Source of the DNA: a virus
Reading direction: 5' to 3' (one strand)
Length of the DNA: 64,000 nucleotides
Virus record (IMG/VR): IMGVR_UViG_3300045988_177154
Coordinates: 96,001-160,000 of that record
The translations under genes and the position numbers were made by a program. Under the pieces are notes generated by a model that worked only from the letters and a program-made list of their open reading frames with translations, searched no databases and was not told the DNA's origin. Of the stretch, positions 79 to 37,805 are shown piece after piece. The stretch's first letter is position 1. Each line of letters begins with the position of its first letter.

Positions 79-150
79 TCGGGGTTCGACTAGTGGTTAG
101 GTCACAGCTCTTTCACAGCTGTAGCGCGGGTTCAAATCCCGTACCCCGAA
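79..150 (+). tRNA. tRNA-Glu(UUC) copy 1
   Basis: Acceptor tcggggt/accccga fully paired; D-arm gac-tagtggttag-gtc; anticodon arm cagct-ctTTCac-agctg; T-arm gcggg-ttcaaat-cccgt. No CCA. Confidence 0.85.
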
Positions 151-169
151 TTACAAAAGGAATTATATT

Positions 170-277
170 ATGAATGAATTATTACTTGAAGAATTACTAG
201 AACAATTAGAAAATAAAGGAATTGATATATCCAAGTTAAATATTCAAGAAATAACTGATGAAGATGATTTCTTTTAA
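170..277 (+). CDS. small acidic hypothetical protein (35 aa, MNELLLEELLEQLENKGIDISKLNIQEITDEDDFF)
   Basis: ATG 170 preceded by aaaagg. Open to TAA 275-277. Lies between the two tRNA-Glu genes. Below the ORF-track cutoff. Confidence 0.3.
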   Translation: MNELLLEELLEQLENKGIDISKLNIQEITDEDDFF

Positions 278-286
278 TAAAATTTA

Positions 287-358
287 ACACCGTTCGTCTA
301 GCGGTTAGGACGCTGCCCTTTCACGGCGGAAACACGGGTTCGAGTCCCGTACGGTGTA
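287..358 (+). tRNA. tRNA-Glu(UUC) copy 2
   Basis: Acceptor acaccgt/acggtgt; D-arm gtc-tagcggttag-gac; anticodon arm ctgcc-ctTTCac-ggcgg; T-arm acggg-ttcgagt-cccgt; discriminator A358. No CCA. Confidence 0.85.
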
Positions 359-690
359 TTGGCATTTAGTAGGAGTTGTAAATGACTTCTATGATAAGGA
401 AAGGGTCAAACTAAGCACGTGAATGATTGTTTGAGGCTCGGTAAAATAATGGATTTAAAATTCCAGTTGCAAATGGAAATTTAAAAAAGTTATTGCGCTA
501 AATGGTGAGTTTAAATCTCCCAATGCCTGTTATTTAAGATAAGATTTATCTTATCCTAAATATAAAAATGACAGTTAAGACATTTTAAATACCTATATGG
601 GTAATCTTGATATAAAATTTAACGAGTCACAAAGAATAAATACGATTTGATTGGCTTGCAAATCATTACAATTTAGGAGTTATTTTATTT

Positions 691-1590
691 ATGAATAAAA
701 TTAAATTATTAAGTGTTTTAACTTTATCTACCGTAGTTTTGGGTGCCTGTTCTTTGTTACCTAAATCAACAGAAAATAAAACTGAAACAACTGAACAAGT
801 AACAACTACTAGTAAAGAAGATTCAGTTAAAGAGAAAGTCACAAAGGATGCTACAGTTCTTTTAGATTCTGTCTTAACTACAGATAATGCTAAATTTAAG
901 AAAGTTTATGGGGAAACCTATGACAAATGGACTGATGCAATTATTGCCGTTCAAACTAGTGAAAAAATTAAGGAAGATGGTCTTACTCCAGCTTCTGAAT
1001 ATTCTGTACAATGGGTAAAAGATTTTCCAATTGAAACACCAGAAGAAACAATTTCTAACTTCCTTAAAGTAAGACGAAATCTCTTTCAGAAAATTGTAAA
1101 TTACAATATTAAAGATGTTGTAATTGATGATTCGGGAAATACTGCAACTGTTACATTTACATCTAAGAAGTTACATTCTCTTGGTTTAGCCTCATCAGTA
1201 AGAACAGTTCTAACTGAACTAATTGGGGGAATTGATAACCTCGGTAAATATAACCAAGCAGGTTCTTCTGAAACCGTTAAACGTTATCAAAACTTACTTT
1301 CTTATTGGATTTTCCGTCACTTATACAAACATGACTTTGCCATTTACTCTAATGTTGATGCTAACTTATCTCATGTTCCATTTACAAAAGGTGAATTTGA
1401 CACTGAGATTAAACTCACAAAGGATAAAGATGGCAATTGGGTGATTTCTCAAGATGATTATAAGACTTTGCTATCAGAATTGGTAGATAGAACTGAAGGC
1501 TATGATACAATAGACCGTTCAGGACTTCCTAATAAGAAAGCAACTGACTCATCTGAAACATCTACAGACAAAGATAAATCAAAAATTTAA
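691..1590 (+). CDS. putative lipoprotein
   Basis: 299-aa ORF with aggag upstream. Signal peptide with lipobox LGAC (MNKIKLLSVLTLSTVVLGAC-S). No catalytic motif recognised. Confidence 0.8.
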   Translation: MNKIKLLSVLTLSTVVLGACSLLPKSTENKTETTEQVTTTSKEDSVKEKVTKDATVLLDSVLTTDNAKFKKVYGETYDKWTDAIIAVQTSEKIKEDGLTPASEYSVQWVKDFPIETPEETISNFLKVRRNLFQKIVNYNIKDVVIDDSGNTATVTFTSKKLHSLGLASSVRTVLTELIGGIDNLGKYNQAGSSETVKRYQNLLSYWIFRHLYKHDFAIYSNVDANLSHVPFTKGEFDTEIKLTKDKDGNWVISQDDYKTLLSELVDRTEGYDTIDRSGLPNKKATDSSETSTDKDKSKI

Positions 1591-1641
1591 TTTAAAAATT
1601 ATAGAGAGTAGAACATCTTAAAAGATGTTTCCTCTCACTTT

Positions 1642-1730
1642 GGAGCGGTACCCAAGTGGCTAAAAGGGGGCGGTCTTGAAAACCGTTAGGTCGTTAATTC
1701 GGCGCGTGGGTTCGAATCCCACCCGCTCCG
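1642..1730 (+). tRNA. tRNA-Ser(UGA)
   Basis: Acceptor ggagcgg/ccgctcc; anticodon loop ctTGAaa; long variable arm; T-arm gtggg-ttcgaat-cccac; discriminator G1730. No CCA. Confidence 0.9.
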
Positions 1731-2577
1731 TTATATAGGAAGCTTGTAGTTGTCTGTGACCATCAAGCACAAACCGGCGTTACTCAAAAGGGAACGTTTG
1801 TAGTAATGTGAAAAGCATTACGATAGGTTTGGTACTATAATTAAATATAAATCCAAAAGTGCATTTTTCCGTTGGTTTGATGCCTGGCGTTATACAGTTC
1901 GCTTGCAGGTGTAAGAATGAACGAATGATTCAGAAAATAACTTGTTATTGGACGGAATCATCACGTTGGGAATTGAAAACTTAGTCGTGATGCTATAGTA
2001 ATATAGCTATAAAACGGATATGAATGGCTGGTTCGCTAAAGACTAGAATAGGAAATCTAAACAGTCCTTACGGTTGTGTGGTAACAGTCCACACCAATTC
2101 ATAAAGGTTATTGTCGGCCAACAATAATCGAATTGTCGCATAATAAATCTTGACTATATTAAGTTGTAGGTGGTGTCCTACTTTATGGCGGAATAAGTTC
2201 ATCGGCTTAACGCATGATAGCATGACATTCAAAAGATGTTCTGAGAGGCGATTGCTTCAAAGTGTTATCAGTACTTATATAGGTAGAGATTAGTGCAAGT
2301 CTAGGATTCTAATACAGAGAACGAATTGCATATGAGTGTAATTCCAAGCTCAAGTGTTGAATGAGGTTGATGTCATGAAAGTGACTATAAGAATTTGCTA
2401 GACAAACGCTGTAAGAAATCCTCACGCAGTAAAAGATATGGTATCTTTGATGATAAAGATATTAAATTTACTGACCAAGATGTGGTGAACCTTTGGGGTA
2501 TCAATCCTCACTTCGTGACTGAATATGGACGTTTAATTGTAGTTGTCAGTAAAAACTAAATCTGGCCCTATATTTTA
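1731..2577 (+). ncRNA. large ORF-free structured RNA candidate A (GOLLD/ROOL-class ornate RNA or novel)
   Basis: 847 nt exactly filling the gap between tRNA-Ser and tRNA-Thr. No ORF of 60 aa or more on either strand. Visibly more G+C than flanks. GNRA-capped hairpins at 1992-2007 (gtaa) and 2372-2385 (gaaa); other helices at 1803-1821, 2076-2094, 2108-2127 and 2166-2181. The ends can pair (1733-1739 atatagg with 2567-2573 cctatat). Confidence 0.5.
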
Positions 2578-2650
2578 GCTGGAGTAGCTCAATTGGTAGA
2601 GCACCCGCCTTGTAAGCGGAAGGTTGCAGGTTCGAAGCCTGTCTCCAGCA
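2578..2650 (+). tRNA. tRNA-Thr(UGU)
   Basis: Acceptor gctggag/ctccagc; D-arm gctc-aattggta-gagc; anticodon loop ctTGTaa; T-arm gcagg-ttcgaag-cctgt; discriminator A. No CCA. Confidence 0.8.
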
Positions 2651-3060
2651 TACTCTATAATAGATGTAATTATAAGAGTTCCTGAAAAATCAATGACTCA
2701 TGTAGGTTGTCATGAATTTACATGAATAGATTTCAATGTTGGTTTATCTGTAATCCGAAGCATGAATAAAACAGATTGTGGTCTTTGCTTTACCATATTA
2801 TTGTAAAGGTCAAAGCTTATCAGAAGTAATTCTGTAAAAAGTTGTTTCGATTGGAATTAGTGACTCCAATCTTTATCCATGAAATAACAAAAAATCATAA
2901 CTATTAAAGTTATGTGGCAGTTACGTTAGAGTATTGCTTGAAGTGTTGAAAATTAGAAGTTAGTGCCGAATTTCTAATCGTACTTCATTGATAGGGTTTT
3001 CGGTGGACACCGCGGGGCATAAGAAAACCGGCCAGTGAAATAAATGGTGTAATTAAAGAA
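2651..3060 (+). ncRNA. ORF-free structured RNA candidate B
   Basis: About 410 nt after tRNA-Thr with no ORF. Hairpins at 2652-2680, 2849-2871 and 2896-2914. Helix ggttttc/gaaaacc (2995-3029) encloses ggtggacaccgcgggg. The 3' boundary is uncertain; an AT-rich tract and a promoter follow. Confidence 0.4.
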
Positions 3061-3125
3061 ATTCTAAGATATGGCTTATAATTTCAAAAATTACTTAAAT
3101 TTTTTAAAAAATTTTAATTTTGATA

Positions 3126-3153
3126 TTGACAATAACTCAAATTTTGATATAAT
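3126..3153 (+). promoter_or_regulatory. sigma-A type promoter inside the tRNA island
   Basis: TTGACA 3126-3131, 16-nt spacer, TG-extended TATAAT 3148-3153 (ttTGaTATAAT). AT-rich UP-like tract upstream. Confidence 0.7.
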
Positions 3154-3287
3154 AGATACATAAAAACTTATAGGTTCTTAGTTTACCGAGAAAAATAAGG
3201 GTCTCCAAAACCTTAGAAATCAGTGCAAGTCTGATAGAGCCTGTTACAAATAAAAATTATTAAAAGAAAAAAGGAAGGTACGTAATC

Positions 3288-3410
3288 ATGACAACATTTA
3301 CAGTCGCACAAGATATTCATATGATTATTGATATGCAGCCGGCAGCCGGTACTGTAGTGCTTCGTCAAGCAAAAAATACCTTACAATCTAATAGTAGGAT
3401 TATAAGTTAG
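3288..3410 (+). CDS. small ORF / possible leader peptide (40 aa, MTTFTVAQDIHMIIDMQPAAGTVVLRQAKNTLQSNSRIIS)
   Basis: RBS aaggaagg 7-8 nt before ATG 3288; stop TAG 3408-3410. Its 3' part contains a copy of the downstream terminator arm. Confidence 0.35.
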   Translation: MTTFTVAQDIHMIIDMQPAAGTVVLRQAKNTLQSNSRIIS

Positions 3411-3438
3411 CATTCAGCTCAGCTTAATAAATCAAACT

Positions 3439-3470
3439 AAGATTGTAAGAAATTCCTTACAATCTTTTTC
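3439..3470 (+). terminator. intrinsic terminator / attenuator upstream of tRNA-Ala
   Basis: 11-bp stem aagattgtaag (3439-3449) / cttacaatctt (3456-3466), followed by a T-run. Arm sequence ccttacaatct is duplicated at 3379-3389, which allows an alternative pairing. Confidence 0.65.
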
Positions 3471-3479
3471 TAGCTATAT

Positions 3480-3550
3480 GGGGCATTAGTTTAATGGGAA
3501 AACACTACCCTTGCAAGGTAACGTTAGGAGTTCGATTCTCCTATGCTCCA
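3480..3550 (+). tRNA. tRNA-Ala(UGC)
   Basis: Acceptor ggggcat/atgctcc with G3:U70 (Ala identity pair); anticodon loop ctTGCaa; T-arm aggag-ttcgatt-ctcct; discriminator A. No CCA. Confidence 0.9.
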
Positions 3551-3575
3551 TTTCCATTAAGGAAATCATCATTAA

Positions 3576-3646
3576 GTGGACATAGTATAAGGGTAGTATG
3601 ACGGGCTTCCAACCCGTTGGTGCGAGTTCGAATCTCGTTGTCCATA
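3576..3646 (+). tRNA. tRNA-Gly(UCC)
   Basis: Acceptor gtggaca/tgtccat; anticodon arm acggg-ctTCCaa-cccgt; T-arm gcgag-ttcgaat-ctcgt. No CCA. Confidence 0.85.
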
Positions 3647-3649
3647 TAA

Positions 3650-3720
3650 GGCGAGGTAGTGAAAAGGTATAACGTTGGGCTCATAACCCAAAATTGTCGG
3701 TTCGAATCCGACCTTCGCAA
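3650..3720 (+). tRNA. tRNA-Met(CAU); initiator-like features, Ile2 not excluded
   Basis: Anticodon arm ttggg-ctCATaa-cccaa, with three G:C pairs next to the loop. 1:72 is a G.A mismatch (ggcgagg/cttcgca). T-arm gtcgg-ttcgaat-ccgac. U11:A24 is elongator-like, so the subtype is ambiguous. Confidence 0.8.
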
Positions 3721-3730
3721 TTTTAAATTA

Positions 3731-3804
3731 CTAGGTGTAGCGCAGTTTGGTAGCGCACGTGCTTTGGGAGCACGGGGCCGCAGGTTCGAATCCTGTCACC
3801 TAGA
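3731..3804 (+). tRNA. tRNA-Pro(UGG)
   Basis: Acceptor ctaggtg/cacctag with C1:G72; D-arm gcgc-agtttggta-gcgc; anticodon arm cgtgc-ttTGGga-gcacg; discriminator A. No CCA. Confidence 0.9.
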
Positions 3805-3845
3805 TAAAGCAATGATGAATTGCTTAAAGGAAAGGTTTTTATATT

Positions 3846-4025
3846 ATGACTAATTTGAAAAAATATATCTTATCTTTGATTATAGCATTTGTAATTACCA
3901 TTCCTATTGCAAGTGTTATTCTTACAATTATTTATGATACAGTAATCTTCTTGATTATCTCAACAATTATTTATTTTATTGTAATGACTTTAGTTATTAA
4001 AGGATTTAATTATGATAAAGATTAG
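3846..4025 (+). CDS. small hydrophobic membrane protein (59 aa, two predicted TM helices)
   Basis: RBS aaaggaaagg upstream of ATG 3846; stop TAG 4023-4025 abuts tRNA-Ile. Sequence MTNLKKYILSLIIAFVITIPIASVILTIIYDTVIFLIISTIIYFIVMTLVIKGFNYDKD. Confidence 0.5.
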   Translation: MTNLKKYILSLIIAFVITIPIASVILTIIYDTVIFLIISTIIYFIVMTLVIKGFNYDKD

Positions 4026-4096
4026 TGTCCGATGGTGAAATGGTATCACAAGCTGCTGATAACGGCTAGTTACAAGTTCAATTCTTGTTCGGACAA
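4026..4096 (+). tRNA. tRNA-Ile(GAU)
   Basis: Acceptor tgtccga/tcggaca fully paired; D-arm gtga-aatggta-tcac; anticodon loop ctGATaa; T-arm acaag-ttcaatt-cttgt. No CCA. Confidence 0.9.
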
Positions 4097-4107
4097 TACA
4101 ATATAAA

Positions 4108-4179
4108 TGCTTCTTAGTTTAATGGATATGACGCCGGACTACGAATCCGGAGATAAAGGTTCAATTCCTTTAGGAGCAA
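4108..4179 (+). tRNA. tRNA-Arg(ACG)
   Basis: Acceptor tgcttct/aggagca; anticodon arm ccgga-ctACGaa-tccgg; T-arm aaagg-ttcaatt-ccttt. No CCA. Confidence 0.85.
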
Positions 4180-4184
4180 TATAT

Positions 4185-4258
4185 TGGAGTATAGACAAAT
4201 TGGTAAAGTCACTGGACTTTGAATCCAGGTTTTGCTGGTTCGAATCCAGCTACTCCAG
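4185..4258 (+). tRNA. tRNA-Gln(UUG)
   Basis: Acceptor tggagta/tactcca with U1:A72; discriminator G; anticodon arm ctgga-ctTTGaa-tccag; T-arm gctgg-ttcgaat-ccagc. No CCA. Confidence 0.9.
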
Positions 4259-4270
4259 TTAATAAAATAT

Positions 4271-4343
4271 GGCTTCGTAGCAAAGTGGTTATTGCGCTGG
4301 CTTGTCACGCCAGAGGTCGGGGGTTCGATTCCCCTCGGGGCCG
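4271..4343 (+). tRNA. tRNA-Asp(GUC)
   Basis: Acceptor ggcttcg/cggggcc; anticodon arm ctggc-ttGTCac-gccag; T-arm ggggg-ttcgatt-cccct; discriminator G. No CCA. Confidence 0.9.
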
Positions 4344-4755
4344 TAACCCTGCCTAGGGGTAATACATAGTAGTAATACTATGAAAGGAAGTTTGACAAAC
4401 TTTCGCCTGTCTTATGATGGGTTAACTAGGCAATACATTTTCAAGTTGCTCAAAAGGCACATTATATAAGCATAATCAGTGAGAAACCTTGAGATAGTTT
4501 CAGGCATGGAATTGCTAACTTCTTGTGCTAGCTAATGGAAGTTAGATGTGCGAAATATAAGGAGAATGTAAGGATTAACAGTTAGAGTCTTAGCGGATAA
4601 TAGCGTAATCCATAACAATATTCATATGGTTGGCAAATCATTGTAAGTATTGTTGAATTTCAAAATCTTAGCGGATAGAGAAGTAATAAATTGGCGAGGA
4701 GCATTCCTTAGAACAAAATTTTATGGAACTCCGAGGCATAGCTCGTCAATGTCAA
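4344..4755 (+). ncRNA. ORF-free structured RNA candidate C
   Basis: 412 nt between tRNA-Asp and the tRNA-like gene, with no ORF. GNRA hairpin catagta-gtaa-tactatg (4365-4382). 8-bp helix ctaacttc/gaagttag (4515-4545). Internal 12-nt direct repeat tcttagcggata at 4588-4599 and 4666-4677. Confidence 0.4.
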
Positions 4756-4829
4756 AGGTGATTAGCTCATTTGGTAGAGCATATATTTTGAGGAATATAG
4801 GGTAATGGGTTCGATTCCCATATTACTAA
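4756..4829 (+). tRNA. non-canonical tRNA-like gene with 8-nt anticodon loop (identity undetermined)
   Basis: Canonical D-arm gctc-atttggta-gagc and T-arm atggg-ttcgatt-cccat; 5-nt variable loop. Acceptor aggtgat/attacta is weak (A1.A72 plus two G.U). Anticodon stem tatat/atata encloses the 8-nt loop tttgagga (4787-4794). Confidence 0.5.
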
Positions 4830-5179
4830 CGAAGCGAAAGTCTATGTCAGACTTAGAAAAAAAGAGCATTAACTCCATACAGATTTATTCTGAATATGGA
4901 AACAATAGAAGCTCGCAAGCAACTATTGTTTTAATCCAATGATTTCCGCAAACTTGAGCCGTACAACTTAGGTCTAACGAAATCGGGTTGAGTATCGCTA
5001 AGTCTTAATGGTAAAAGTATCGCCAGCAGGTTTGTAACTGCGAAAGATGAATGCTTAAGAGATACGATTAGGAATAATCGTGGATAAACAACTAAACAAT
5101 AAGGTTGTTAAAGACTCTTATTTAACGCTATAATCTCAGGCCGTTAACTTCTTATAGGGGAAGAGAAATCCTATTTTAT
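4830..5179 (+). ncRNA. ORF-free structured RNA candidate D
   Basis: 350 nt before tRNA-Val with no ORF. Helices tccata/tatgga (4874-4900) and aacaatag/ctattgtt (4901-4930, around a gcaa loop). GNRA hairpin acgatta-ggaa-taatcgt (5064-5081). Confidence 0.4.
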
Positions 5180-5251
5180 GCTCTGTTAGCTCAGGGGGAG
5201 AGCACTAGTCTTACAAACTAGATGTCATTGGTTCAAATCCAATACAGAGCA
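5180..5251 (+). tRNA. tRNA-Val(UAC)
   Basis: Acceptor gctctgt/acagagc; D-arm gctc-aggggga-gagc; anticodon arm ctagt-ctTACaa-actag; T-arm attgg-ttcaaat-ccaat. No CCA. Confidence 0.9.
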
Positions 5252-5306
5252 TTTCCTACATAAAACGCAAAATCGTTTATTGTAGTGCTTACGATGTAAG
5301 CATCTA

Positions 5307-5389
5307 GCGCCCGTGGTGGAATGGCAGACACGCTAGGCTTAGACCCTAGTGTCCGAAAGGACGTGAGAGTTCGAGTCTCTCCGAGTGCA
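5307..5389 (+). tRNA. tRNA-Leu(UAG)
   Basis: Anticodon arm ctagg-ctTAGac-cctag; long variable arm gtcc-gaaa-ggac; T-arm gagag-ttcgagt-ctctc; discriminator A. One C.A mismatch in the acceptor stem. No CCA. Confidence 0.85.
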
Positions 5390-5390
5390 T

Positions 5391-5464
5391 CTTGTCTTAG
5401 TGTTAATAGGTTAGCATATCTCACTGTGACTGAGAAGGTACGGGTTCGAGTCCCGTAGGCATGA
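5391..5464 (+). tRNA. tRNA-His(GUG) without encoded G-1, discriminator A73
   Basis: Anticodon arm tctca-ctGTGac-tgaga; T-arm acggg-ttcgagt-cccgt; acceptor cttgtct/aggcatg with a U2.U71 mismatch. Position -1 is T5390 (it could pair with A5464) and directly follows the tRNA-Leu discriminator. No CCA. Confidence 0.75.
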
Positions 5465-5471
5465 TTAGGAA

Positions 5472-5500
5472 AGGGAACAATAATTGTTCTCTTTATTTAT
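5472..5500 (+). terminator. intrinsic terminator closing the tRNA island
   Basis: Hairpin gaacaa-taa-ttgttc followed by ctctttatttat. Confidence 0.55.
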
Positions 5501-5515
5501 TTTTAGAGGTGTTTA

Positions 5516-21151: not shown

Positions 21152-21181
21152 ATAACTACAAATCACAAAGGAATGAAAACT

Positions 21182-22351
21182 ATGAACTTATTAGAACAAT
21201 ACAAACAGTTACAGAAAACAAACTTATCAAAAGATGGCGATATGCAGCTAGGTATCGCTTACAAAAAAGAAAATGGATTGACTACAGTAAAATACCTTCA
21301 TGGTGGAGTAGATTTTAATAATCCTTTATATAGACAAGCTCGTGGATTAACACTAGACTTGAATGGAAAAGTAATTTTACGAGGATTTGAAAAATTCTTT
21401 AACTGGAAACAATTAACAGAATATGAAAATTATTCAAAGGAATTTAAAAAAGTATACTCAGAAGTAGAATATATCCCTAATCATAAATATAATTTCTATG
21501 AAAAGTTGGATGGTTCACTAATTCTCTTAGCAGAGTATAAGAATCGTTTTGTAGCTGCAACTACTTCATCATCTTATAATCCATATACTCAAACTGCTCT
21601 TAAATGGTTCCACCAAAAAGAAAACCATAGAGAATTGCTTAACTATCTAAGAGCTAAAAATATTACATTAGCATTTGAATACATTTCAATCAAAAACCCA
21701 ATCGTAATTCATTATACTCATACTGATTACGTTTTAATTGGAGCTCATGAAAACAAAACAGGTAAACGCTACTCACAAGAACAATTAAACAAAATTGCTA
21801 AACGTTTTGGATTTAACCAACCTAAAGTTTTCCAATATACTTTTGAAGAAATTCAAGAAGTTATGAGCAATGCTAAAGATATTGAAGGCTTCGTGCTAGA
21901 AAATACTTATGGAAAACTTATTAAATTTAAAACTGACGAATGGTTCCGCTTGAAAGATTACTACGGTATCTTCTTCGGACCACTAACAAATTCAAAAATT
22001 TCTACAATTATTGAAAGCTATCTTGCTGATGAAATTGATGACCTAATCGCTGTTGAACAACAACACGAACATTACAAACATTTAGGATTGCTTGACACTA
22101 CTCTAACTCATGCTAAATATTTTGAAGATGAAGTTCTAAAAGCTTATAAAGTTACAAAACATTTATCAGACAAAGAACTTGGCTTGAATTGGAAAGATTA
22201 TATGGAATCATATGCTTTGCCATGTGTATTTAATATAAGAAAAGGTGTTGATTGGAGAATACAAAGAAAAGGTGAAGGCCCAGTTACATTAGCATTATTA
22301 GTTCAAACAAAAGTAAAACAAGAAAGAGAGGAAGAATTATTAAATGGATAA
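21182..22351 (+). CDS. RNA ligase-like nucleotidyltransferase (covalent lysine-adenylate superfamily)
   Basis: Start placed at ATG 21182, 9 nt after aaagga. Motif I YEKLDGS, EGFVLE, and motif V-like KLIKFKTDEW. Confidence 0.6.
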   Translation: MNLLEQYKQLQKTNLSKDGDMQLGIAYKKENGLTTVKYLHGGVDFNNPLYRQARGLTLDLNGKVILRGFEKFFNWKQLTEYENYSKEFKKVYSEVEYIPNHKYNFYEKLDGSLILLAEYKNRFVAATTSSSYNPYTQTALKWFHQKENHRELLNYLRAKNITLAFEYISIKNPIVIHYTHTDYVLIGAHENKTGKRYSQEQLNKIAKRFGFNQPKVFQYTFEEIQEVMSNAKDIEGFVLENTYGKLIKFKTDEWFRLKDYYGIFFGPLTNSKISTIIESYLADEIDDLIAVEQQHEHYKHLGLLDTTLTHAKYFEDEVLKAYKVTKHLSDKELGLNWKDYMESYALPCVFNIRKGVDWRIQRKGEGPVTLALLVQTKVKQEREEELLNG

Positions 22352-22841
22352 GATTATTAACAATATGAGATACACTGACACTCATGTTTATTTCTTTACG
22401 GACCAAGCTCCGTTTTCAAACTTTTATAAAACAAGATTTTATTATAAGGGATATAACTTGCAATTTTCTGAGCAAGGATTTATGATTGAGAAAGCATTGT
22501 TATTTGATAATAGCAAAGCGAGTTTAATCGCTTATGAAAAACACCCTTATCAAGTTAAAATGCTTGGCCGTAAAGTGAGAAATTACAATGAAGCAAAATG
22601 GAATGAAGTACGTTATGATAAAATGGTAGAAGTGCTTCGTGCTAAATTTTCTCAAAATGAAGATTTGAAACAAATCTTACTTGAAACAGGTGACCGTATT
22701 CTAGTCGAAGGCTCTCCTTATGATAAGATTTGGGGCGTAAAAATCGACTGGAAAGATGATAAAATTCTTGACGAAAAGAATTATAAAGGAATGAACTTGT
22801 TAGGTAAGGCACTTATGCAAGTCAGAAGCGAGCTTAAATAG
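22344..22841 (+). CDS. NADAR (YbiA/DUF1768) family ADP-ribose-processing protein
   Basis: Motifs FFTDQAPFSNFY, FSEQGFMIEKA, MLGRKVRNYNEAKW, LVEGSPYDKIWGV. The start overlaps the ligase stop by 8 nt. Confidence 0.85.
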   Translation: MDKIINNMRYTDTHVYFFTDQAPFSNFYKTRFYYKGYNLQFSEQGFMIEKALLFDNSKASLIAYEKHPYQVKMLGRKVRNYNEAKWNEVRYDKMVEVLRAKFSQNEDLKQILLETGDRILVEGSPYDKIWGVKIDWKDDKILDEKNYKGMNLLGKALMQVRSELK

Positions 22842-23048: not shown

Positions 23049-24263
23049 ATGAAAGATAATAAAACTGAAATTGAACAACTATCTCGGAGAGAAGTTTTTA
23101 AAATGACTCAAGAAACAAAACGAAAAAAACGTAGTAAAAGAACAAGACTTCTAATTACACTTATTACTGTTGGAATTATTGGTGGAATTGCTATTGAGGG
23201 TGTAAATCTTTTATCAATCTATAATAGTAGTAAGGCTTGGCAAAAACAATCTAAAACGCCTATTGCTTCATTAGAACCTTATATGCTCTATCTAAGCCAA
23301 GAGGATATGGATAATCTTTCAGAATATACTTCAAGATTAAGTGTTATCTATGATAGTAATAAAGGTGTATTTGCTGAGGGAGTTACTCAAAAGGATTTAG
23401 ATGAGTTACAAAAAGAATTTGAAAAATTAGCGCCCTCACTCAAAGAAAAAGAAGAAGCTAAATATAAATTAGTAAGTAATATGTGGAGTATGAAATCTGA
23501 CTATGATGCAATGTGGAATAAAGAACATACTGCATTATTAGACTCTACTACACCTAAAACAGTAAGTGATTATGTGGATAAACACTGGAAAATCATGGAT
23601 TCATATTTAGAAGATGATTCTATTCAAAAAGAATGGCTGATTAACACTTATAATGAATTAAATAAATTAAAAGATGATACTGCTACAATCTCTGCTTTGT
23701 TCAATATGTTTAATTCAACTTTTGATGTATCTGACAAAAAGATTATTGTTAAGAAAGATGTAAGTTCATCATCTATTGCAGAATGGAGTAAAGTTAAAGC
23801 AAATCTTAACTTCAGTTGGCCTATCGTTTCTAATTACATGACTGAAATTATTAACAACTCAACTAAGATTTTAGAAAAACATGATAAAGCTATCAATCTT
23901 TATACAGAATATAGTGGAGCTGCAGAAAGTAAAAATGCTTTTGACACTTGGAGTAAAACATATTCACAATATAATAACAGTATGATTAACTTGCCGAACT
24001 TTGTTGGAAAAGACATTGAAACTGTAAAATCTTGGGCTAAAGAAAATGGAATTACACTCATTATCAATAAAGTAGAAGATTCTGCTAAGAAAGATACAGT
24101 AATTTCACAAAATCCAACTAATTCTGATTATGCTAAAATTCTAAAAGGTAGTGCATTTACTGTTAATATTGCTAAAGAAAAAACAACTACTACTGAAACA
24201 AAAGATAAAGACAAAGAAAATAAAAAAGAAACAACAGAAGCAACAACTAAGGAGAATAACTAA
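23049..24263 (+). CDS. membrane-anchored protein with C-terminal PASTA domain
   Basis: TM helix LLITLITVGIIGGIAI after a basic stretch. C-terminal LPNFVGKDIETVKSWAKENGITLIINKVEDSAKKDTVISQNP...FTVNIAK is PASTA-like. Confidence 0.7.
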   Translation: MKDNKTEIEQLSRREVFKMTQETKRKKRSKRTRLLITLITVGIIGGIAIEGVNLLSIYNSSKAWQKQSKTPIASLEPYMLYLSQEDMDNLSEYTSRLSVIYDSNKGVFAEGVTQKDLDELQKEFEKLAPSLKEKEEAKYKLVSNMWSMKSDYDAMWNKEHTALLDSTTPKTVSDYVDKHWKIMDSYLEDDSIQKEWLINTYNELNKLKDDTATISALFNMFNSTFDVSDKKIIVKKDVSSSSIAEWSKVKANLNFSWPIVSNYMTEIINNSTKILEKHDKAINLYTEYSGAAESKNAFDTWSKTYSQYNNSMINLPNFVGKDIETVKSWAKENGITLIINKVEDSAKKDTVISQNPTNSDYAKILKGSAFTVNIAKEKTTTTETKDKDKENKKETTEATTKENN

Positions 24264-26497
24264 TGAAGATTTTAAAAAAGATTATGAAATTTATTTTAAA
24301 GCTCTTTAAATGGAGTTTAATATTAGGATTTATCCTTGCTCTTGTTGGTTTCTTAGCTGGAACAATTTATAGTGCAGGTGTAATCAAACAAACTCCTAAA
24401 ATTACTGAAGAAATGATTACAAAAGCAACAGGTGGAACTACAAATATGTACGATTCAACTGGCCAAGTAATCTATTCTGATACTGAGCATAGACGAGATT
24501 ATATTCGTTATGATGAAATTCCAAATAAATATATTGAGCTATTACTTGCAACTGAAAATAAGAATTATTGGAATGAAAAAGGTTGGTCATTTGAAGCTAT
24601 CCTAGCTGCAATTAAAAGCAAAGGTGCTCGTGGTGGTTCTACTATTGAACAACAACTTATTAAAAATCTTGTTTTCTCAAGTGACATTAAAGACAGAACG
24701 ATTGACCGTAAGATTAAAGAAATCTGGCTCGCTTCACAAATGGATTTAAACTTTGACAAGAAACAAATCTTGGAATGGTATATTAACTTAATCAATATGG
24801 GTGAGGGCTCTTATGGAGCAAATACTATTGCTATTACTTATTACGGTCAAAGTTTGAAAGATTTAACTGGTGATGATGCAGTAACATTATCTAAATTAGC
24901 TACAATCGCTGGATTAGGACAAGCTCCATCAGCTTACAATCTATATGATAACCCCGAATTAGTAGAAGAACGAAGAAATATTGTTTTACTAAGTGCTCTT
25001 AATAATAATAAGATTACTGAAGAACAATATGAAGAAGCTAAAAAAGTTCCAATTCAAGAGGGCTTGAAAGAGCGTTATTGGAGAAATGGAACAGTGTTAG
25101 CACAAACAAAAGAACATAATGCTTATGTAACTTCTGCTCTTAAACAAGTTCAAGAATTGGGCTATGATTTAGAAAAAACACCAATGCAAATCTATACTGC
25201 TTTAGACCCAAATGTTAACTCACAAGTAAAATCTACCTTTGATAATTTTTCTGGTTATAAAGATGATGAAGAACAAATGGCAGCTACTGTTATTGACCCT
25301 AATACAGGTTATGTATTAGCACAATATGGGGGAAGAAATACAGAAGCATTTGGTTTGAATAGAGCAACACAACAAACACGTAGTTCAGGTTCGTCTATTA
25401 AACCATTTGAAGATTATGGTCCCGCTATTGAATATAATGGACTAGGAACAAATTATATTTTAGATTCAAGTAATTATCTTTACCCAGGTACAAATGTAGT
25501 AGCACATAACTTTGGTGGCGCAACTTATGGAAATGTAACTATGGCATTCGCTCTTAAAATGTCATTAAACACTCCAGCTATTCGTATCTTGAATAATGTT
25601 GTTGGTTCAAACAATGCTAAGAAATTCCTAGCTGGAATGAACTTAGATACAGAAGAAACCTATGGAGATTCAACAGCTTTAGGATTGAATGTTTCAACTG
25701 AACAAATGGCAGCTGCTTCTGCTACTCTTGCTAATAAAGGAATGTATAAGAAACCACAATATATTACTAAATTGGTATTTAATGATGGTTCAGAAAAAGA
25801 AATTAAATTTAATCCAACAAGAGCTATGAAAGAAAGTACTGCATATATCTTATTGAAGATGATGGCAGAAGTCCCTAAACCTACTGGTACAGCTACTGAT
25901 GCTATTATCAATCACTATAAGAGTTATTCTGTTAAAACAGGTACTGTAGGATACGGTCCCGAAGTTGGTTGGGCAACAAGTAATGATGCTTCTGATACTT
26001 GGGTAGTTGGAACAACTAAGAATGTTTCTATTGCTATTTGGAATGGCTATGATTCCCCTAATGAATACGGACATAGTGTTGATGTTTATGCTCACTCACA
26101 ACAACGAGTATTTAAACAATTGATGTTAGCAATGAATGAAGGCAAAGATGTTAGCGATTGGGAAAAACCAGATACTGTAACAAGTTCTGACCCTAACAAC
26201 ATGAAACCAACTGATGTTGATGTTAACTCATCTTATATTGATAAATTCCCAGAGCCATATTTCACATTATCAGACACTAGTGTTAATAATAGTATCAATG
26301 CTTATTACAAAAAAGATAAATTATTAAAAGTGGAAGATGCTGGAGTAGAAAAATACAAAGTTCCAAGTGATTATAAAGAAGTTATTGATTGGCAATCAAA
26401 AGCAAATGCAGATATGCTAAGATTATTCAATGCTTATCCAAACAATCCTTTATACCCAGCACTTATCAACAATAATGCTTATTATCAAGAACCATAA
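24263..26497 (+). CDS. class A penicillin-binding protein (bifunctional glycosyltransferase/transpeptidase, PBP1A-like)
   Basis: N-terminal TM helix. GT51 motifs ATENKNYW, RGGSTIEQQLIKN, RKIKEIW. Transpeptidase motifs SSGSSIKPF (SxxK) and VKTGTVG (KTG). The ATG overlaps the upstream stop by 1 nt. Confidence 0.9.
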   Translation: MKILKKIMKFILKLFKWSLILGFILALVGFLAGTIYSAGVIKQTPKITEEMITKATGGTTNMYDSTGQVIYSDTEHRRDYIRYDEIPNKYIELLLATENKNYWNEKGWSFEAILAAIKSKGARGGSTIEQQLIKNLVFSSDIKDRTIDRKIKEIWLASQMDLNFDKKQILEWYINLINMGEGSYGANTIAITYYGQSLKDLTGDDAVTLSKLATIAGLGQAPSAYNLYDNPELVEERRNIVLLSALNNNKITEEQYEEAKKVPIQEGLKERYWRNGTVLAQTKEHNAYVTSALKQVQELGYDLEKTPMQIYTALDPNVNSQVKSTFDNFSGYKDDEEQMAATVIDPNTGYVLAQYGGRNTEAFGLNRATQQTRSSGSSIKPFEDYGPAIEYNGLGTNYILDSSNYLYPGTNVVAHNFGGATYGNVTMAFALKMSLNTPAIRILNNVVGSNNAKKFLAGMNLDTEETYGDSTALGLNVSTEQMAAASATLANKGMYKKPQYITKLVFNDGSEKEIKFNPTRAMKESTAYILLKMMAEVPKPTGTATDAIINHYKSYSVKTGTVGYGPEVGWATSNDASDTWVVGTTKNVSIAIWNGYDSPNEYGHSVDVYAHSQQRVFKQLMLAMNEGKDVSDWEKPDTVTSSDPNNMKPTDVDVNSSYIDKFPEPYFTLSDTSVNNSINAYYKKDKLLKVEDAGVEKYKVPSDYKEVIDWQSKANADMLRLFNAYPNNPLYPALINNNAYYQEP

Positions 26498-27622: not shown

Positions 27623-28840
27623 ATGTACTTAACTGAAAAAGAGATTATCTATTCAACTGATGAAAGATTTAACTTGATTAAAGATTTGTGCCATTTAAGC
27701 AAAAATCTTTATAATGCAAGTCTTTATGATGTTAGACAATATTACTTTGAAACTAAATCATACAGAACTTGGCAATCACAAGTGCCAATTTTTACTAAAA
27801 CTAAAAATACTGATTATTATGCACTTCAATCTCATGTTGCTAGTGAAGTGATAAAGCAAGTTGGTAGACAATTTATTAGTTTTTTCAATAATAAATCTAA
27901 CAAAAAGAAACGAATCCCTAAATACAAAGATAAAAATGGTTATAACGTTGTTACTTTCAATAATCGTGCAATTTCTAGGAAGATTGAGTTTGATGAGGAT
28001 AAACAACTTTATACTCATACTCTATGTAAGAAAAGTTATAATCTTAAAATTCAATCAACTAAATCAAATATTAAAATGGTAAAATTTGTTTATGATGAAG
28101 TTAATGACTTAATCAAGTGTTACAAGATTTATGAAGTTGAACAACCTAAGTTGAAAAATGATAATTCACGGTATTTCTCAATTGACCCAGGGTTAAATAA
28201 TATTGTTGCTATTTACAATAACATTGGAATCAGACCGTTATTATACAATGGCAGACCAATCAAAAGTATTAACCAATATTACAATAAAACAACTGCTAAA
28301 TTGAGGTCAGAATTGCCCACTAATATTAAATCATCTAAAAGATTAAAACAACTATCTTTAAAGAGAAATAACAAAATTGATTATGAGATGCACAAAATTT
28401 CAACTCATATTATCAATGAAGCCGTAAAAAACAACATTTCAAAAATCTTTATTGGCAATAACATTGGTTGGAAAAATGAAATTAACATTGGCAGAAGAAA
28501 TAACCAAAATTTTGTTAATATTCCTCATACAAAACTATTCAATCAATTGCTATATAAAGGGTCATTAAATGACATTGAAGTTATCTTTACAGAAGAGAGT
28601 TACACTTCAAGAGCAAGTTTCTTTGATAAAGATGAATTACCTATTTATGATGAAACTAGCAAGTATAAATTCTCTGGTAGAAGAATAAAACGTGGCTTAT
28701 ATAAAGATAGTAAAGGCAATATATGGAATGCTGATTTAAATGGAGCAGCCAATATTATGAGAAAATGTTCAGACAAAGCCTATAAAGGTATAAGAAAAAC
28801 CAAAGAAATGATGCGACAGCCAATTCTTATAACATTATAA
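27623..28840 (+). CDS. tnpB: TnpB-like RNA-guided endonuclease (IS605 OrfB family, cysteine-less zinc-finger variant)
   Basis: 405 aa; RBS aaggaggtg upstream. RuvC-I SIDPGLNN, RuvC-II FTEESYTS, RuvC-III NADLNGAANI. The segment between II and III (RASFFDKDEL...RIKRGLY) lacks the CxxC pairs. Confidence 0.85.
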   Translation: MYLTEKEIIYSTDERFNLIKDLCHLSKNLYNASLYDVRQYYFETKSYRTWQSQVPIFTKTKNTDYYALQSHVASEVIKQVGRQFISFFNNKSNKKKRIPKYKDKNGYNVVTFNNRAISRKIEFDEDKQLYTHTLCKKSYNLKIQSTKSNIKMVKFVYDEVNDLIKCYKIYEVEQPKLKNDNSRYFSIDPGLNNIVAIYNNIGIRPLLYNGRPIKSINQYYNKTTAKLRSELPTNIKSSKRLKQLSLKRNNKIDYEMHKISTHIINEAVKNNISKIFIGNNIGWKNEINIGRRNNQNFVNIPHTKLFNQLLYKGSLNDIEVIFTEESYTSRASFFDKDELPIYDETSKYKFSGRRIKRGLYKDSKGNIWNADLNGAANIMRKCSDKAYKGIRKTKEMMRQPILITL

Positions 28841-28986: not shown

Positions 28987-29748
28987 ATGAAAAATAAGAA
29001 AAAAGCTGATTGGCTGGACTGGCTATTAAGAATTGCAATTGTACTAGGAATTATTGGAACAATTTATTTTAGCTATAGTCCAGCAAAAAATTATTTAACT
29101 GCTAAGCAAGAAGAAGCAAAGATTGAAGAAGTTGCTAAGAAAGTAGTAGAAAACACACACGATTACCCAGATGTAAAAGAAATTAAGAAATCAACAAATG
29201 AAGATGTAGTTGGTTGGATTAGAGTACCTGGTACTAATATTGATGAACCAATTTTACAAACTACTGACAATGAATTTTACTTAAATCACTCTTTAACTAA
29301 GGAAGAGTTAGATGTTGGAAGTATTTTCCTAGATGCTAAAGCAAATTCTAATTACGATAACAACTTGAATTTCGTATTCGGCCACAATACTTACATTGAT
29401 AATAAATTTACTCAATTAAGAAAATTCTCTGACCCAGAATTTAATAAAGCTAATAAAACTTTCTATATCTTTACTGATAAGAATGAAAAGATTACTTACA
29501 GAATTATCGGACAAGGTTTAATTCCACCAGTATTTCCTCTTTATACCGAAGATAATGTGAAATTAACCGTAGATAATTTAACCGAATACCAAAAACACCT
29601 GAAAGAATTTACAGATATTACTCAAGAAGATATTGAGGATATTCATGTTGACTCTAAACTTGCAATCTTAACTACTTGTTTATCTTACAACAATTCTGAC
29701 GGGCGACAAATTGTAGTAGGATTAGAAGTAAGTCGTGAAAAATATTAA
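28987..29748 (+). CDS. srtB: class B sortase
   Basis: N-terminal TM helix. Motifs VVGWIRVPGTNIDEPILQTTDNEFYLNH, FGHN, and the catalytic LAILTTC. Confidence 0.85.
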   Translation: MKNKKKADWLDWLLRIAIVLGIIGTIYFSYSPAKNYLTAKQEEAKIEEVAKKVVENTHDYPDVKEIKKSTNEDVVGWIRVPGTNIDEPILQTTDNEFYLNHSLTKEELDVGSIFLDAKANSNYDNNLNFVFGHNTYIDNKFTQLRKFSDPEFNKANKTFYIFTDKNEKITYRIIGQGLIPPVFPLYTEDNVKLTVDNLTEYQKHLKEFTDITQEDIEDIHVDSKLAILTTCLSYNNSDGRQIVVGLEVSREKY

Positions 29749-31143: not shown

Positions 31144-31144
31144 A

Positions 31145-31218
31145 GGCCCCATAGCCAAGTTGGTTTAAGGCATTGGACTGCAAATCCAAGAACGTGGGTT
31201 CGAATCCCATTGGGGTCT
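31145..31218 (+). tRNA. tRNA-Cys(GCA)
   Basis: Acceptor ggcccca/tggggtc; anticodon arm ttgga-ctGCAaa-tccaa; T-arm gtggg-ttcgaat-cccat; discriminator U (Cys identity). No CCA. Confidence 0.9.
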
Positions 31219-31247
31219 TTTTATTTAAAAAAGAAAGTTGGTTAATT

Positions 31248-31834: not shown

Positions 31835-32581
31835 ATGAATGAAATATTAACAATACCAAATTTAATTATTATTGTAACAACTATCATTATCTATCTAGTT
31901 GTAGATAATATATTCCAAAAAATTATAATTAAACACAATAATATAACAAATACTTTTTTAGCTAACACTTCTAAGATTATAGTAATTCTCATAGGTATTT
32001 TTGTTTTTTGCTCACAATATCCTGTATTTGAGAAAAGTTTAAATTCTCTATTCACAAATAGTGCTTTGATTGTAGCAGTTTTAGGATTTATACTACAAAA
32101 CACAATCAAGAATATTATAGCAGGCTTAATGCTTTTATCTGCTGAAACTTTTAAAATTGGGGATAGAATAAGAATGCCCGCTCAAGATATTACTGGAACA
32201 ATAGAAGAAATGACTTTAAGACATACAACTTTAAAACTTGTTACTAATGAAAGAGCAATTATTCCTAACTCAATTATGAATGATTCTATAATAGTAAACA
32301 ATGATATAAAAGAGTCAATAACAAGCTACCCTATATCTCTCCAAGTTAAAATTGATAAAGATATAAGCCTTGCTAAACAAATATTAGAAGAAGCAATAGA
32401 AGCTAATCAAAATCTATTAAATAAAGAAAATTCAAAAGTGACTATATCTCATGTAACTGAAACAATAGTAGAATTGAAAGCTCTTATATGGACCAAGGAT
32501 ATTGAAACAAGCTTTGAAGAATTATCTAATTTAAAATTAGAAGTTATCAAAAAATTTCAAGAAAATAACTTATATGACTAA
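31835..32581 (+). CDS. mscS: small-conductance mechanosensitive channel (MscS family)
   Basis: Three N-terminal TM helices. Pore helix plus beta-domain IKNIIAGLMLLSAETFKIGDRIRM...GTIEEMTLRHTTLK...NERAIIPNS. Confidence 0.8.
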   Translation: MNEILTIPNLIIIVTTIIIYLVVDNIFQKIIIKHNNITNTFLANTSKIIVILIGIFVFCSQYPVFEKSLNSLFTNSALIVAVLGFILQNTIKNIIAGLMLLSAETFKIGDRIRMPAQDITGTIEEMTLRHTTLKLVTNERAIIPNSIMNDSIIVNNDIKESITSYPISLQVKIDKDISLAKQILEEAIEANQNLLNKENSKVTISHVTETIVELKALIWTKDIETSFEELSNLKLEVIKKFQENNLYD

Positions 32582-32619
32582 TAAAAAGGAATAATATAAC
32601 TATGAATATAATTTTTATA

Positions 32620-32753
32620 TTCAATAAGTAATTTTGGAGATTCCGAGCCTCACTGGAAGTTTTATATTTTGGAGATTCCGTGCCTTACTGGAGATAAATA
32701 TGCCTGAGCCAGGTAATACAGAATAACTTAGGAGTAATCCTAAGTTATTTTTT
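32620..32753 (+). ncRNA. candidate small RNA or structured 3' UTR with tandem 28-nt units
   Basis: Two units ttttggagattccg(a/t)gcct(c/t)actgga at 32632-32659 and 32667-32694, a third related hairpin cctg-agc-cagg, then the terminator at 32723-32753. Many GGA/GGAG motifs. Confidence 0.3.
32723..32753 (+). terminator. intrinsic terminator
   Basis: ataacttagga-gtaa-tcctaagttat plus a T-run. Confidence 0.8.
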
Positions 32754-32915
32754 AGCATTCAAATACTATTATAAAACAAAAACGTTTTTATAATTTGTCT
32801 TATAATAGTTTAGCTCTTAGAGTATCAAGGAAGTAGAATAATATAACTAGATATGATATAATAAACGAAAAGGGTTACATTTTTGGTAACTCAAAAGAAA
32901 ACGAGGTGCTTTTTA

Positions 32916-36502: not shown

Positions 36503-36530
36503 AAAAAGAGAGCAAATTGCTCTCTTTTAT
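36503..36530. terminator. bidirectional terminator (serves the minus-strand cca gene)
   Basis: agagagc-aaat-tgctctct, flanked by an A-run and a T-run. Confidence 0.75.
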
Positions 36531-37699
36531 TTTGTCAGTGATTCAATAAATTCTTTTTTAGATTTTCCTTGGCAAGCAAGTTTTTTAGATTGCAAAATCA
36601 GTTCACCAAATTCTTTTGATGGTTTAAATCCAAGTTGAATTAACTCTTGACCTGTAATGAATTGTGTTGAAATTATTTCTTGACTCACTTTAAACATAGA
36701 AGTCAATAATTTAATTTCAAATGTTGGCAAACCTAGCTTAATACCTTGAACAAGAATTGAGAATAAAGCAAATTCTTTAAATTTGATTTGCTCTGTTTTG
36801 AAAACAAATTCTCCAACTGTTTTTGAATCTTTAATAAATGATGAAGTAACTTCAGCCAAGAATTTGAATGATTTAATCATTTCAACAATTTCTGTTTGAT
36901 TTGTGATTGTTAATTCAGAACTTTCAAAGATGAAAGCAATAACAATTTCTGTTACTTTCTCTGGGCATAATTCCTTTGTAGCTTGAGTTAATTTATCAAT
37001 CAATTCAAGTTTTAAAGATGTTGGGAAGAAATCTGTAAGCACTCCCATTTTTTCTAATTTCTTAAAGAATACAGATGGTTTTTCTGATTTAGTAATTGCT
37101 TTGTGAGTTTCTTCAAAAATTCGTTCCATTGGAAGAATAGAGCAATCAAGAGTTTTAGAAATTTCAATTGTTTCAGGTGCAATTTCAAATCCAAAGCGAG
37201 AAGCAAATTGAGCTGCACGAAATACTCGTAATGAATCTTCAGCAAATTTTTCAGTACAATGTCTAATGACACCAGTTTCTAAATCTTTCATTCCACCAAA
37301 GAAGTCAAGAATTTTACCTGTTTGTGTGTCTTTCATTAGAGCGTTGATTGTAAAATCTCGGCGTTCAGCAGCTTTTGCTTCACCAATAAATGGGTCAACA
37401 ACAATTTCAAAGTCAGTATGTTTTTCTCCAATTTGTTTTTCTGTACGAGGGAAACTAAAGTCGAAATCAGTTCCGTCCATGAAAGCTTTGTAAACGCCAA
37501 ATGACTTGCCCACAAAGTCAATTTTAATACCAAGAGATTTAGCAACAGAAATAAAATCATCTTCTGTAATAAAATGAATTTCAATGTCAATGTCTTTGTT
37601 AGTTTTGCCTAACACTTCATCTCGGACACAACCACCTACATAATAAGTTTTTGCTCCCTTTTCTGATAATTTTTTAAGTAGTGTTTTTAATTTAGTCAT
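36527..37699 (-). CDS. cca: tRNA nucleotidyltransferase (CCA-adding enzyme)
   Basis: Pol-beta head YYVGGCVRDEVLGKTNKDIDIEIH; RRDFTINAL; EDSLRVFRAAQFASRFGF. Confidence 0.85.
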   Translation of the reverse strand: MTKLKTLLKKLSEKGAKTYYVGGCVRDEVLGKTNKDIDIEIHFITEDDFISVAKSLGIKIDFVGKSFGVYKAFMDGTDFDFSFPRTEKQIGEKHTDFEIVVDPFIGEAKAAERRDFTINALMKDTQTGKILDFFGGMKDLETGVIRHCTEKFAEDSLRVFRAAQFASRFGFEIAPETIEISKTLDCSILPMERIFEETHKAITKSEKPSVFFKKLEKMGVLTDFFPTSLKLELIDKLTQATKELCPEKVTEIVIAFIFESSELTITNQTEIVEMIKSFKFLAEVTSSFIKDSKTVGEFVFKTEQIKFKEFALFSILVQGIKLGLPTFEIKLLTSMFKVSQEIISTQFITGQELIQLGFKPSKEFGELILQSKKLACQGKSKKEFIESLTK

Positions 37700-37730: not shown

Positions 37731-37759
37731 ATGATACAACAAAAATTTCACTTTGTCAA
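37731..37759 (-). promoter_or_regulatory. sigma-A type promoter for cca (minus strand)
   Basis: On the minus strand: TTGACA (plus-strand 37754-37759), 17-nt spacer, TATCAT (plus-strand 37731-37736). Confidence 0.65.
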
Positions 37760-37776
37760 CAATAAAATAAAAAATA

Positions 37777-37805
37777 TTTACATTTTTAAAATTTTTTGTT
37801 ATAAT
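37777..37805 (+). promoter_or_regulatory. sigma-A type promoter (divergent from the cca promoter)
   Basis: TTTACA 37777-37782, 17-nt spacer, TG-extended TATAAT 37800-37805. Confidence 0.65.

Follow-up and report, generated by a model that had tools for sequence, protein, structure and literature searches.

The tRNA array and the tRNA-His gene

Throughout the text, the window denotes the whole 64-kb stretch of viral DNA that was analysed, which has a G+C content of ~29%. ARAGORN called 18 tRNAs in the window, 17 of which form an array on the + strand (79-5465; ARAGORN, Rfam) without encoded CCA and with tRNA-His in the last position, the other being a solitary tRNA-Cys at 31144 (31144-31219). 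Taken together with five tRNAs that lie upstream in relatives, the array and the tRNA-Cys provide the phage family with tRNAs for all 20 amino acids. The tRNA operon is closed by a terminator-like hairpin with T-run (5470-5504, + strand; hairpin 5470-5494), consisting of an 11-bp stem and then ATTTATTTTT, which is kept in relatives.

The tRNA-His(GUG) gene (5391-5464, + strand) matched the Rfam tRNA model at full length with 50.4 bits, and both ARAGORN and Rfam placed the GUG anticodon in a standard cloverleaf, the variable loop being 4 nt long. By direct reading, the acceptor strands are 5'-CTTGTCT and AGGCATG-3', with a C1:G72 pair and a U2.U71 mismatch; T5390 occupies position -1, A5464 position 73 and a T position 74, and the CCA is not encoded. 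The ARAGORN call for tRNA-His(gtg), 5390-5465, is one base off the Rfam limits because its acceptor stem is drawn with 8 bp and takes in T5390:A5464, a pair that U-1 and A73 are able to form. Immediately upstream lies tRNA-Leu(UAG) (5307-5389, + strand; ARAGORN, Rfam), whose discriminator A5389 adjoins T5390, and this abutment is kept in all relatives. The junction nucleotide T5390 (+ strand) is read from the sequence both as position 74 of tRNA-Leu and as position -1 of tRNA-His. An earlier sequence-only reading of the locus had described a tRNA-His without encoded G-1, with T5390 at -1 and A5464 at 73, separated from the tRNA-Leu discriminator by a single base; the sequence and the Rfam alignment bear out each of these points, and no fold with an encoded G at -1, which would have overturned that description, was found, the covariance model aligning at full length with no register that gives G-1. 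Compared with canonical bacterial tRNA-His, the encoded G-1 is replaced by T5390 and C73 by A5464 (G in two relatives, L026 and L027). Compared with the alpha-proteobacterial type, the absence of G-1 and the A73 are found, but the U72 of the G1.U72 pair is not, the window gene having C1:G72.

The nucleotides that surround tRNA-His recur along the array. Of the 18 window tRNAs, 10 have A, 7 have T and 1 has G at position -1; of the 21 tRNAs of the relative L001 (2795-9752), 12 have T and 9 have A there. This gives T or A at -1 in 17/18 for the window and in 38/39 for the two sets combined. A purine at position 73 and a T at position 74 each occur with these same frequencies (17/18 and 38/39). 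T5390 is thus explained by an array context in which T or A stands before the tRNAs and T after the discriminators. The preferred context of RNase P has U at -1, and RNase Z of Firmicutes cuts CCA-less precursors after the discriminator. The suggestion of the sequence-only reading that this tRNA-His might be orthogonal to host processing found no support here, since leader and trailer contexts are ordinary throughout the array, and the array tRNAs would for that reason need the host RNase P. None of the phage tRNAs of the window and L001 encodes CCA, and many of their leaders end in TTTA or TTA; the context of processing thus seems uniform along the array.

The junction nucleotide could nonetheless be kept in the mature tRNA, making the Thg1-like protein (TLP) encoded elsewhere in the window unnecessary. 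A single cut between A5389 and U5390, made by RNase Z on the CCA-less tRNA-Leu or by RNase P in a tRNA-His mode, would leave pU-1-tRNA-His with an 8-bp acceptor stem ending in U-1:A73. In line with this, every relative keeps the zero-spacer abutment and the T at -1, whereas spacers elsewhere are variable, the nucleotide at 73 is A or G, both of which pair with U, and the 8-bp stem is the one that ARAGORN draws. However, U-1 stands opposite a purine 73 in about half of the array tRNAs (8/18 in the window, 12/21 in L001), which must be cut at +1, so that the U-1:A73 pair reflects background composition rather than a signal. Moreover, the A-to-G change at 73 is a lone, one-sided change that is not significant (94/500 shuffles), and RNase P is only weakly hindered from cutting at +1 by a U:A pair. 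U-1:A73 was therefore rejected as a meaningful eighth acceptor pair, on the array background and the non-significant change at 73, and we regard retention of the encoded U-1 as improbable.

Acceptor mismatches at pairs 1-3 are found, among the 18 window tRNAs, in tRNA-His (2:71), in tRNA-Met (1:72) and in a tRNA-like element embedded in a GOLLD RNA (1:72), and in L001 in tRNA-His and tRNA-Met only. A mitochondrial-style 5' editing of U2.U71 by the TLP was rejected because the other tRNAs have no general mismatch pattern at these pairs. The GOLLD RNA (RF02032, 156-165 bits) is full-length in the window (4689-5142, + strand), between tRNA-Asp and tRNA-Val of the array, and is also present in two relatives (L022, 8966-9418; L027, 8976-9428). 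Its tRNA-like element is read by ARAGORN with a 4-base anticodon tgag in the window, as Ser(tga) in L022 and as Asn(gtt) in L027. No GOLLD RNA was found at the same array site in L001, L024, L026 and L028, which makes it a presence/absence polymorphism.

Conservation of the tRNA-His gene among related phages

Nine related loci (L001, L022-L029), with 47-94% identity in the flanking ORF, were compared with the window; L003 was left out of the counts for its ambiguous -1/73 reading. The Leu-T-His arrangement is present in 9/9 of these loci, and Rfam calls the same arrangement in six related contigs. The T at -1 and the acceptor stem, including the U2.U71 mismatch, are invariant in the window and in all nine loci, and position 73 is A except for the G of L026 and L027. 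In 5/5 distinct tRNA-His sequences the pairing of the cloverleaf is complete (100%), with one compensatory change in the T stem. The fully paired cloverleaf, the compensatory change and the invariant stem together indicate, on sequence grounds, that the tRNA-His gene is functional and under strong purifying selection. A73, or G73 in one lineage, is an unusual trait of the family, conserved across these ~300-350 kb jumbo phages. In cultured phages no tRNA-His similar to the window gene was found, the search returning weak partial hits only. In the anticodon loop (window 5424-5430), position 38 is C, A or T among relatives, and the remaining anticodon arm is invariant.

The phage family and its probable host

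Metagenomic contigs with homologues of window genes number in the hundreds and are about 300-350 kb long, IMG/VR having viral contigs of 262-315 kb; no cultured relative of this jumbo-phage family was found. The phage pyruvate formate-lyase (PFL) shares 78-80% identity with its Streptococcus counterpart, and the best genome hits of the phage protein are Streptococcus in 80/80 cases, chiefly from the mitis, sanguinis and anginosus groups. A protein-homologue search with PFL, run for the host, gave copies from the phage family only. The source of the window is probably a ~300-350 kb jumbo phage with an oral Streptococcus as host.

Host-like cell-envelope and metabolic genes lie at 23049-26497, 28987-29748, 31835-35216 and 42264-42863 of the window; besides the PFL, they encode a class A PBP, a PASTA-domain protein, a sortase, a signal peptidase I and an MscS-like channel. 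In the relatives L026 and L028, the syntenic position is occupied by a gene annotated as LytR_cpsA_psr.

We considered that the phage might mimic a host whose own tRNA-His lacks G-1, as in alpha-proteobacteria or SAR11. This was ruled out by the PFL, at 78-80% identity to Streptococcus, by the Gram-positive wall genes and also by the absence of U72. In Streptococcus, the probable host, a canonical HisRS is to be expected. This counts in favour of a maturation route dedicated to this tRNA: with a canonical host HisRS, something must compensate for the lack of both G-1 and C73.

Alternatively, the tRNA may need no -1 nucleotide, either because it is charged by a HisRS, altered or encoded by the phage, that recognises the anticodon and A73, or because the host HisRS uses it inefficiently, or because the gene is decaying or acts as a decoy. 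A precedent is the alpha-proteobacterial tRNA-His of Caulobacter, which likewise has no G-1 and has A73, and whose HisRS reads the anticodon, A73 and U72 (PMC3064791); a phage devoid of TLP, Hena1, also has a tRNA-His without encoded G-1 (see below). The Caulobacter identity element U72 is however absent from the window tRNA-His, which has G72, so that the alpha-proteobacterial model does not fit; the probable host differs too, being Streptococcus, and no HisRS, divergent or otherwise, was found among the scanned ORFs of the 64-kb window of this ~335-kb genome. Decay is unlikely in view of the strong purifying selection and of the compensatory stem change. Altogether, we hold it very improbable that the -1 nucleotide is dispensable.

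A Thg1-like protein of the bacterial type

The TLP gene (37869-38663, + strand) had been pointed out in the sequence-only reading by the motifs RLDGKAFHSF, SDEISLV and FDARGF, which we verified in the translation. Its product was recognised by Pfam Thg1 (PF04446; 97.7 bits against a cut-off of 29.2, 6e-28) and Thg1C (30.5 bits against a cut-off of 26.3, 5e-7). The metal-binding carboxylates (RLDG-D, SDE) and the aspartate of WRxxD are kept, and in an alignment of 20 sequences (window and 19 homologues) D33, S77, D78, E79 and D157 fall in invariant columns. The HINNLYN motif, which reads the GUG anticodon, is absent, the phage protein having 'DSVKNSVYLYA' where human Thg1 has 'DCHINNLYNTV'. The best solved relative is BtTLP of Bacillus thuringiensis (PDB 4KGK/4KGM), with 134 bits and 4.9e-38 over residues 5-218 against 4KGK, compared with 56 bits against human Thg1 and 50-56 bits against the human, yeast-type and Candida Thg1 proteins. 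From its sequence features, the phage enzyme is a bacterial TLP and not a eukaryotic-type Thg1.

The domain pair and the catalytic residues are common to BtTLP and the phage TLP, but the two share only ~40% identity, the last ~45 residues of the phage protein are distinct, and it reads 'WRVNDSVKNS' where the TLP family consensus is 'WRQxDAxRNS'. BtTLP comes from a bacterial setting in which G-1 addition is not obviously needed. Its own organism encodes G-1:C73, whereas the phage tRNA-His gene does not. The phage TLP forms a long branch, sharing ~40% identity with its closest relatives from outside the family, and its specificity could for this reason have shifted. The eukaryotic Thg1 system resembles the phage in that one genome encodes both an A73 tRNA-His lacking G-1 and an enzyme of the Thg1 superfamily; it differs in that the phage enzyme lacks HINNLYN and the phage tRNA-His has C1:G72 and the U2.U71 mismatch.

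The biochemistry of the TLP class bears on what such an enzyme could do opposite A73. For BtTLP, the reported kcat/KM values are 5500 for G-1 on C73, 108 for G-1 on A73, i.e., ~50-fold lower, and ~230 for U-1 on A73, and in competition opposite A73 U-1 is favoured ~40-fold over G-1 (PMC3061083). Templated addition and 5'-truncated tRNAs are preferred by both BtTLP and MaTLP, the preference of BtTLP for truncated substrates being 5-160-fold without specificity for tRNA-His, and no enzyme other than eukaryotic Thg1 is so far known to add an untemplated G (PMC3061083). By analogy, the phage TLP would be expected to prefer templated addition and 5'-truncated tRNAs. This speaks against the eukaryote-style route that the sequence-only reading had put forward, with an untemplated G-1 set opposite A73: the protein is of the TLP type, and BtTLP favours U-1.

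A maturation route dedicated to tRNA-His can nevertheless be envisaged, in which RNase P would cut at +1 and the TLP would add the -1 nucleotide, as an untemplated G or as a U or C templated by A73 or G73, this being the selected function of the enzyme. Consistent with it, the TLP and the tRNA-His without G-1 are co-conserved across the family. In addition, BtTLP rescues a yeast thg1-delta strain that has only A73-tRNA-His, in which a -1 nucleotide is then detected (PMC3061083), which shows that a functional -1 nucleotide can be provided by a TLP in vivo; and HisRS is stated to depend mainly on the 5' phosphate at -1 (PMC3061083). Against it, the phage enzyme is without Thg1-specific features, its class disfavours G opposite A73 (PMC3061083), and the G73 of L026 and L027 would template C-1 and not G-1. 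These points, together with the comparative data given below, lead us to consider a dedicated route rather unlikely. Under the reading in which the TLP does supply the -1 nucleotide, a templated U-1 is more likely than G-1.

The gene cassette around the TLP

The TLP gene is divergent from the gene for a CCA-adding enzyme (tRNA nucleotidyltransferase; 36527-37699, - strand; PHROG 2244, 6.6e-57), as the sequence-only reading had it, and PolyA_pol is found in all relatives. The 169-bp divergent intergenic region contains back-to-back promoter-like sites (37731-37805), TTTACA-17-TATAAT with TG on the + strand (11/12) and TTGACA-17-TATCAT on the - strand (11/12), both being consensus matches only. 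On the other side, 3 nt after the TLP gene, begins that of a calcineurin-like metallophosphoesterase (38666-39421, + strand; Pfam Metallophos 1.9e-13; synteny), which overlaps the TLP gene in the lineage whose TLP is 67% identical, and this is followed by the gene of an RNase T-family 3'-5' exonuclease (39489-40496, + strand; Pfam RNase_T 6.3e-11; synteny). The order CCA-adding enzyme, TLP, Metallophos and RNase_T is kept in relatives with TLPs 67-95% identical. A T4 Rnl1-type RNA ligase is encoded elsewhere in the window (21173-22351, + strand; PHROG 562, 5.4e-39; Pfam RNA_lig_T4_1 2.8e-23). Judged by its gene content, the cassette looks like a tRNA-end maturation and repair module.

In relatives, a protein with a YqeY/GatB-C-terminal-like domain, a putative tRNA binder, is conserved a few genes downstream of the TLP cassette; the corresponding ORF of the window would, by synteny with L354 (7901-8392), be that at 41776-42267.

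Phage kits that restore tRNA ends after nuclease attack are known from the Pnkp/Rnl1 tRNA repair of phage T4 and from the CCA-adding enzymes of jumbo phages. An Rnl1-type ligase, a phosphoesterase and a CCA-adding enzyme are likewise encoded in the window. The window kit differs in its additional 5'-end polymerase, the TLP, and RNase T-like exonuclease, which belong to a single conserved cassette.

On the reading that we favour, the jumbo phage carries both its own tRNA set and a kit for the maintenance of tRNA ends. Its tRNA-His is a real, selected gene that has lost the canonical G-1:C73 and now has U-1 and A/G73, and the leader of this gene would be processed like those of the other array tRNAs. 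The TLP would be a BtTLP-like templated 3'-5' polymerase whose main job is most likely the repair of damaged or truncated tRNA 5' ends, in partnership with the CCA-adding enzyme for the 3' CCA, the RNase T-like exonuclease for 3' trimming, the metallophosphoesterase for end healing and the Rnl1-type ligase. If the TLP also acts on tRNA-His, the enzyme class predicts a templated U-1 opposite A73 rather than G-1, which would provide the extra 5' phosphate that HisRS mainly reads. To the TLP as a general 5'-end repair enzyme within the phage tRNA maintenance kit we assign about an even chance. The 5' repair that the sequence-only reading had offered as its second option fits the enzyme type and the gene context.

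Distribution of TLPs and of tRNA-His without encoded G-1 in other phages

TLPs are common among phages and were found in 164 cultured records and in at least 577-596 IMG/VR stretches per scan. We collected 236 IMG/VR loci centred on a TLP (+/-10 kb, some overlapping), 50 of which contain tRNAs. All the distinct tRNA-His genes lying within 10 kb of a phage TLP (7/7) have an encoded G-1:C73. The closest cultured TLP, at 40% identity, is that of Staphylococcus phage PMBT8, in which no tRNA gene was found in the 87,148 of 88,129 bp (99%) scanned.

Conversely, Erwinia phage Hena1 has a tRNA-His (L365, 55495-55570) with C-1/C73-CCA and no encoded G-1, and no TLP was detected in its whole genome by tblastn with 15 diverse TLP queries, for which PMBT8 served as positive control. 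A tRNA-His without encoded G-1 is also present in Aeromonas phage AhFM11 (L364; U-1/C73-CCA), and an IMG/VR tRNA-His (L020, 6770-6840) has U-1/C73. From this small survey, the lack of an encoded G-1 does not seem to be rare among phage tRNA-His genes. Two further loci, L010 and L019, share the D stem and the anticodon arm with the window tRNA-His and yet have a canonical G-1:C73-CCA.

The TLP is therefore not tied to a tRNA-His without G-1, nor the reverse, as the TLP-linked genes are canonical in 7/7 cases, PMBT8 is tRNA-less where scanned and Hena1 is TLP-less, and a general association of the two was rejected. The same data weigh against the dedicated maturation of tRNA-His, with other phage TLPs standing beside a canonical G-1:C73 or, in PMBT8, where no tRNA was found, and with the tRNA-His of Hena1 existing without a TLP. 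Thus, of the proposal that the element matures its own tRNA-His through its TLP, the co-conservation of both parts within the family holds, whereas the wider comparison shows no link between TLP and tRNA-His without G-1.

Several groups of large phages carry an annotated 'tRNA-His guanylyltransferase', namely the Bacillus Bc431v3/Bcp1 group, GAP32/CBB-like jumbo phages, Caulobacter, Lak and Fusobacterium Fnu1 phages and others. These belong to the same protein family and are likewise tRNA-rich, but the tRNA-His genes nearby are canonical G-1:C73, unlike that of the window. Phage TLP genes are thus already known from annotation, and the literature has remarked on them either as unusual or as coding for a 5'-restoration enzyme, the latter being the view taken of phage Thg1 in PMC7824862. 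Our literature search found nothing on phage tRNA-His genes that have A73 and lack G-1 or on their link to a TLP, nor on the tRNA-His or TLP of the window's phage family. Outside phages, DdiTLP2 of Dictyostelium is described as a TLP-type enzyme that matures a mitochondrial tRNA-His without encoded G-1 (PMC12632743). There, G-1 is added by Watson-Crick pairing to C73, whereas position 73 of the phage tRNA-His is A or G.

Implications for TLP function

The physiological substrates of bacterial-type TLPs have been called unidentified (PMC3061083 among others), and in a 2019 review of Thg1 the words phage and virus are absent. The abundant oral phage family offers a concrete system in which to test TLPs, for it combines in one genome a conserved tRNA-His without G-1/C73, a TLP and a complete tRNA-end toolkit. 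Should the TLP supply the -1 nucleotide, reverse polymerisation would be linked to viral translation autonomy; should it not, the phage would show how HisRS copes with an A73 tRNA-His that has no G-1. The strongest version, in which the TLP is the obligatory -1-adding enzyme for a private tRNA-His without G-1 and C73 in a family of Streptococcus jumbo phages, appears unlikely to us. If true, a natural in vivo substrate would be known for the first time for a TLP of the bacterial type, and the bacterial world would include a tRNA-His identity pathway that belongs to a virus.

Other features of the phage genomes

IS605/TnpB-type transposase genes (OrfB, Cas12f1-like TNB) lie in or near the tRNA arrays of relatives, with insertion places that vary (L023, 1264-2562; L024, 1189-2487 and 7380-8582; L028, 1387-2685), and a transposase-like ORF (PHROG 506) is found in the window at 27623-28840. 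Functions for the reversal of ADP-ribosylation are also encoded: a NADAR domain protein (22344-22841), whose gene overlaps the end of the RNA ligase gene, and an ADP-ribosylglycohydrolase (50578-51399) in the window, and a microbial PARG located upstream in relatives (L022, 918-1703). The presence of these enzymes suggests a counter-defence against ADP-ribosylating host systems.
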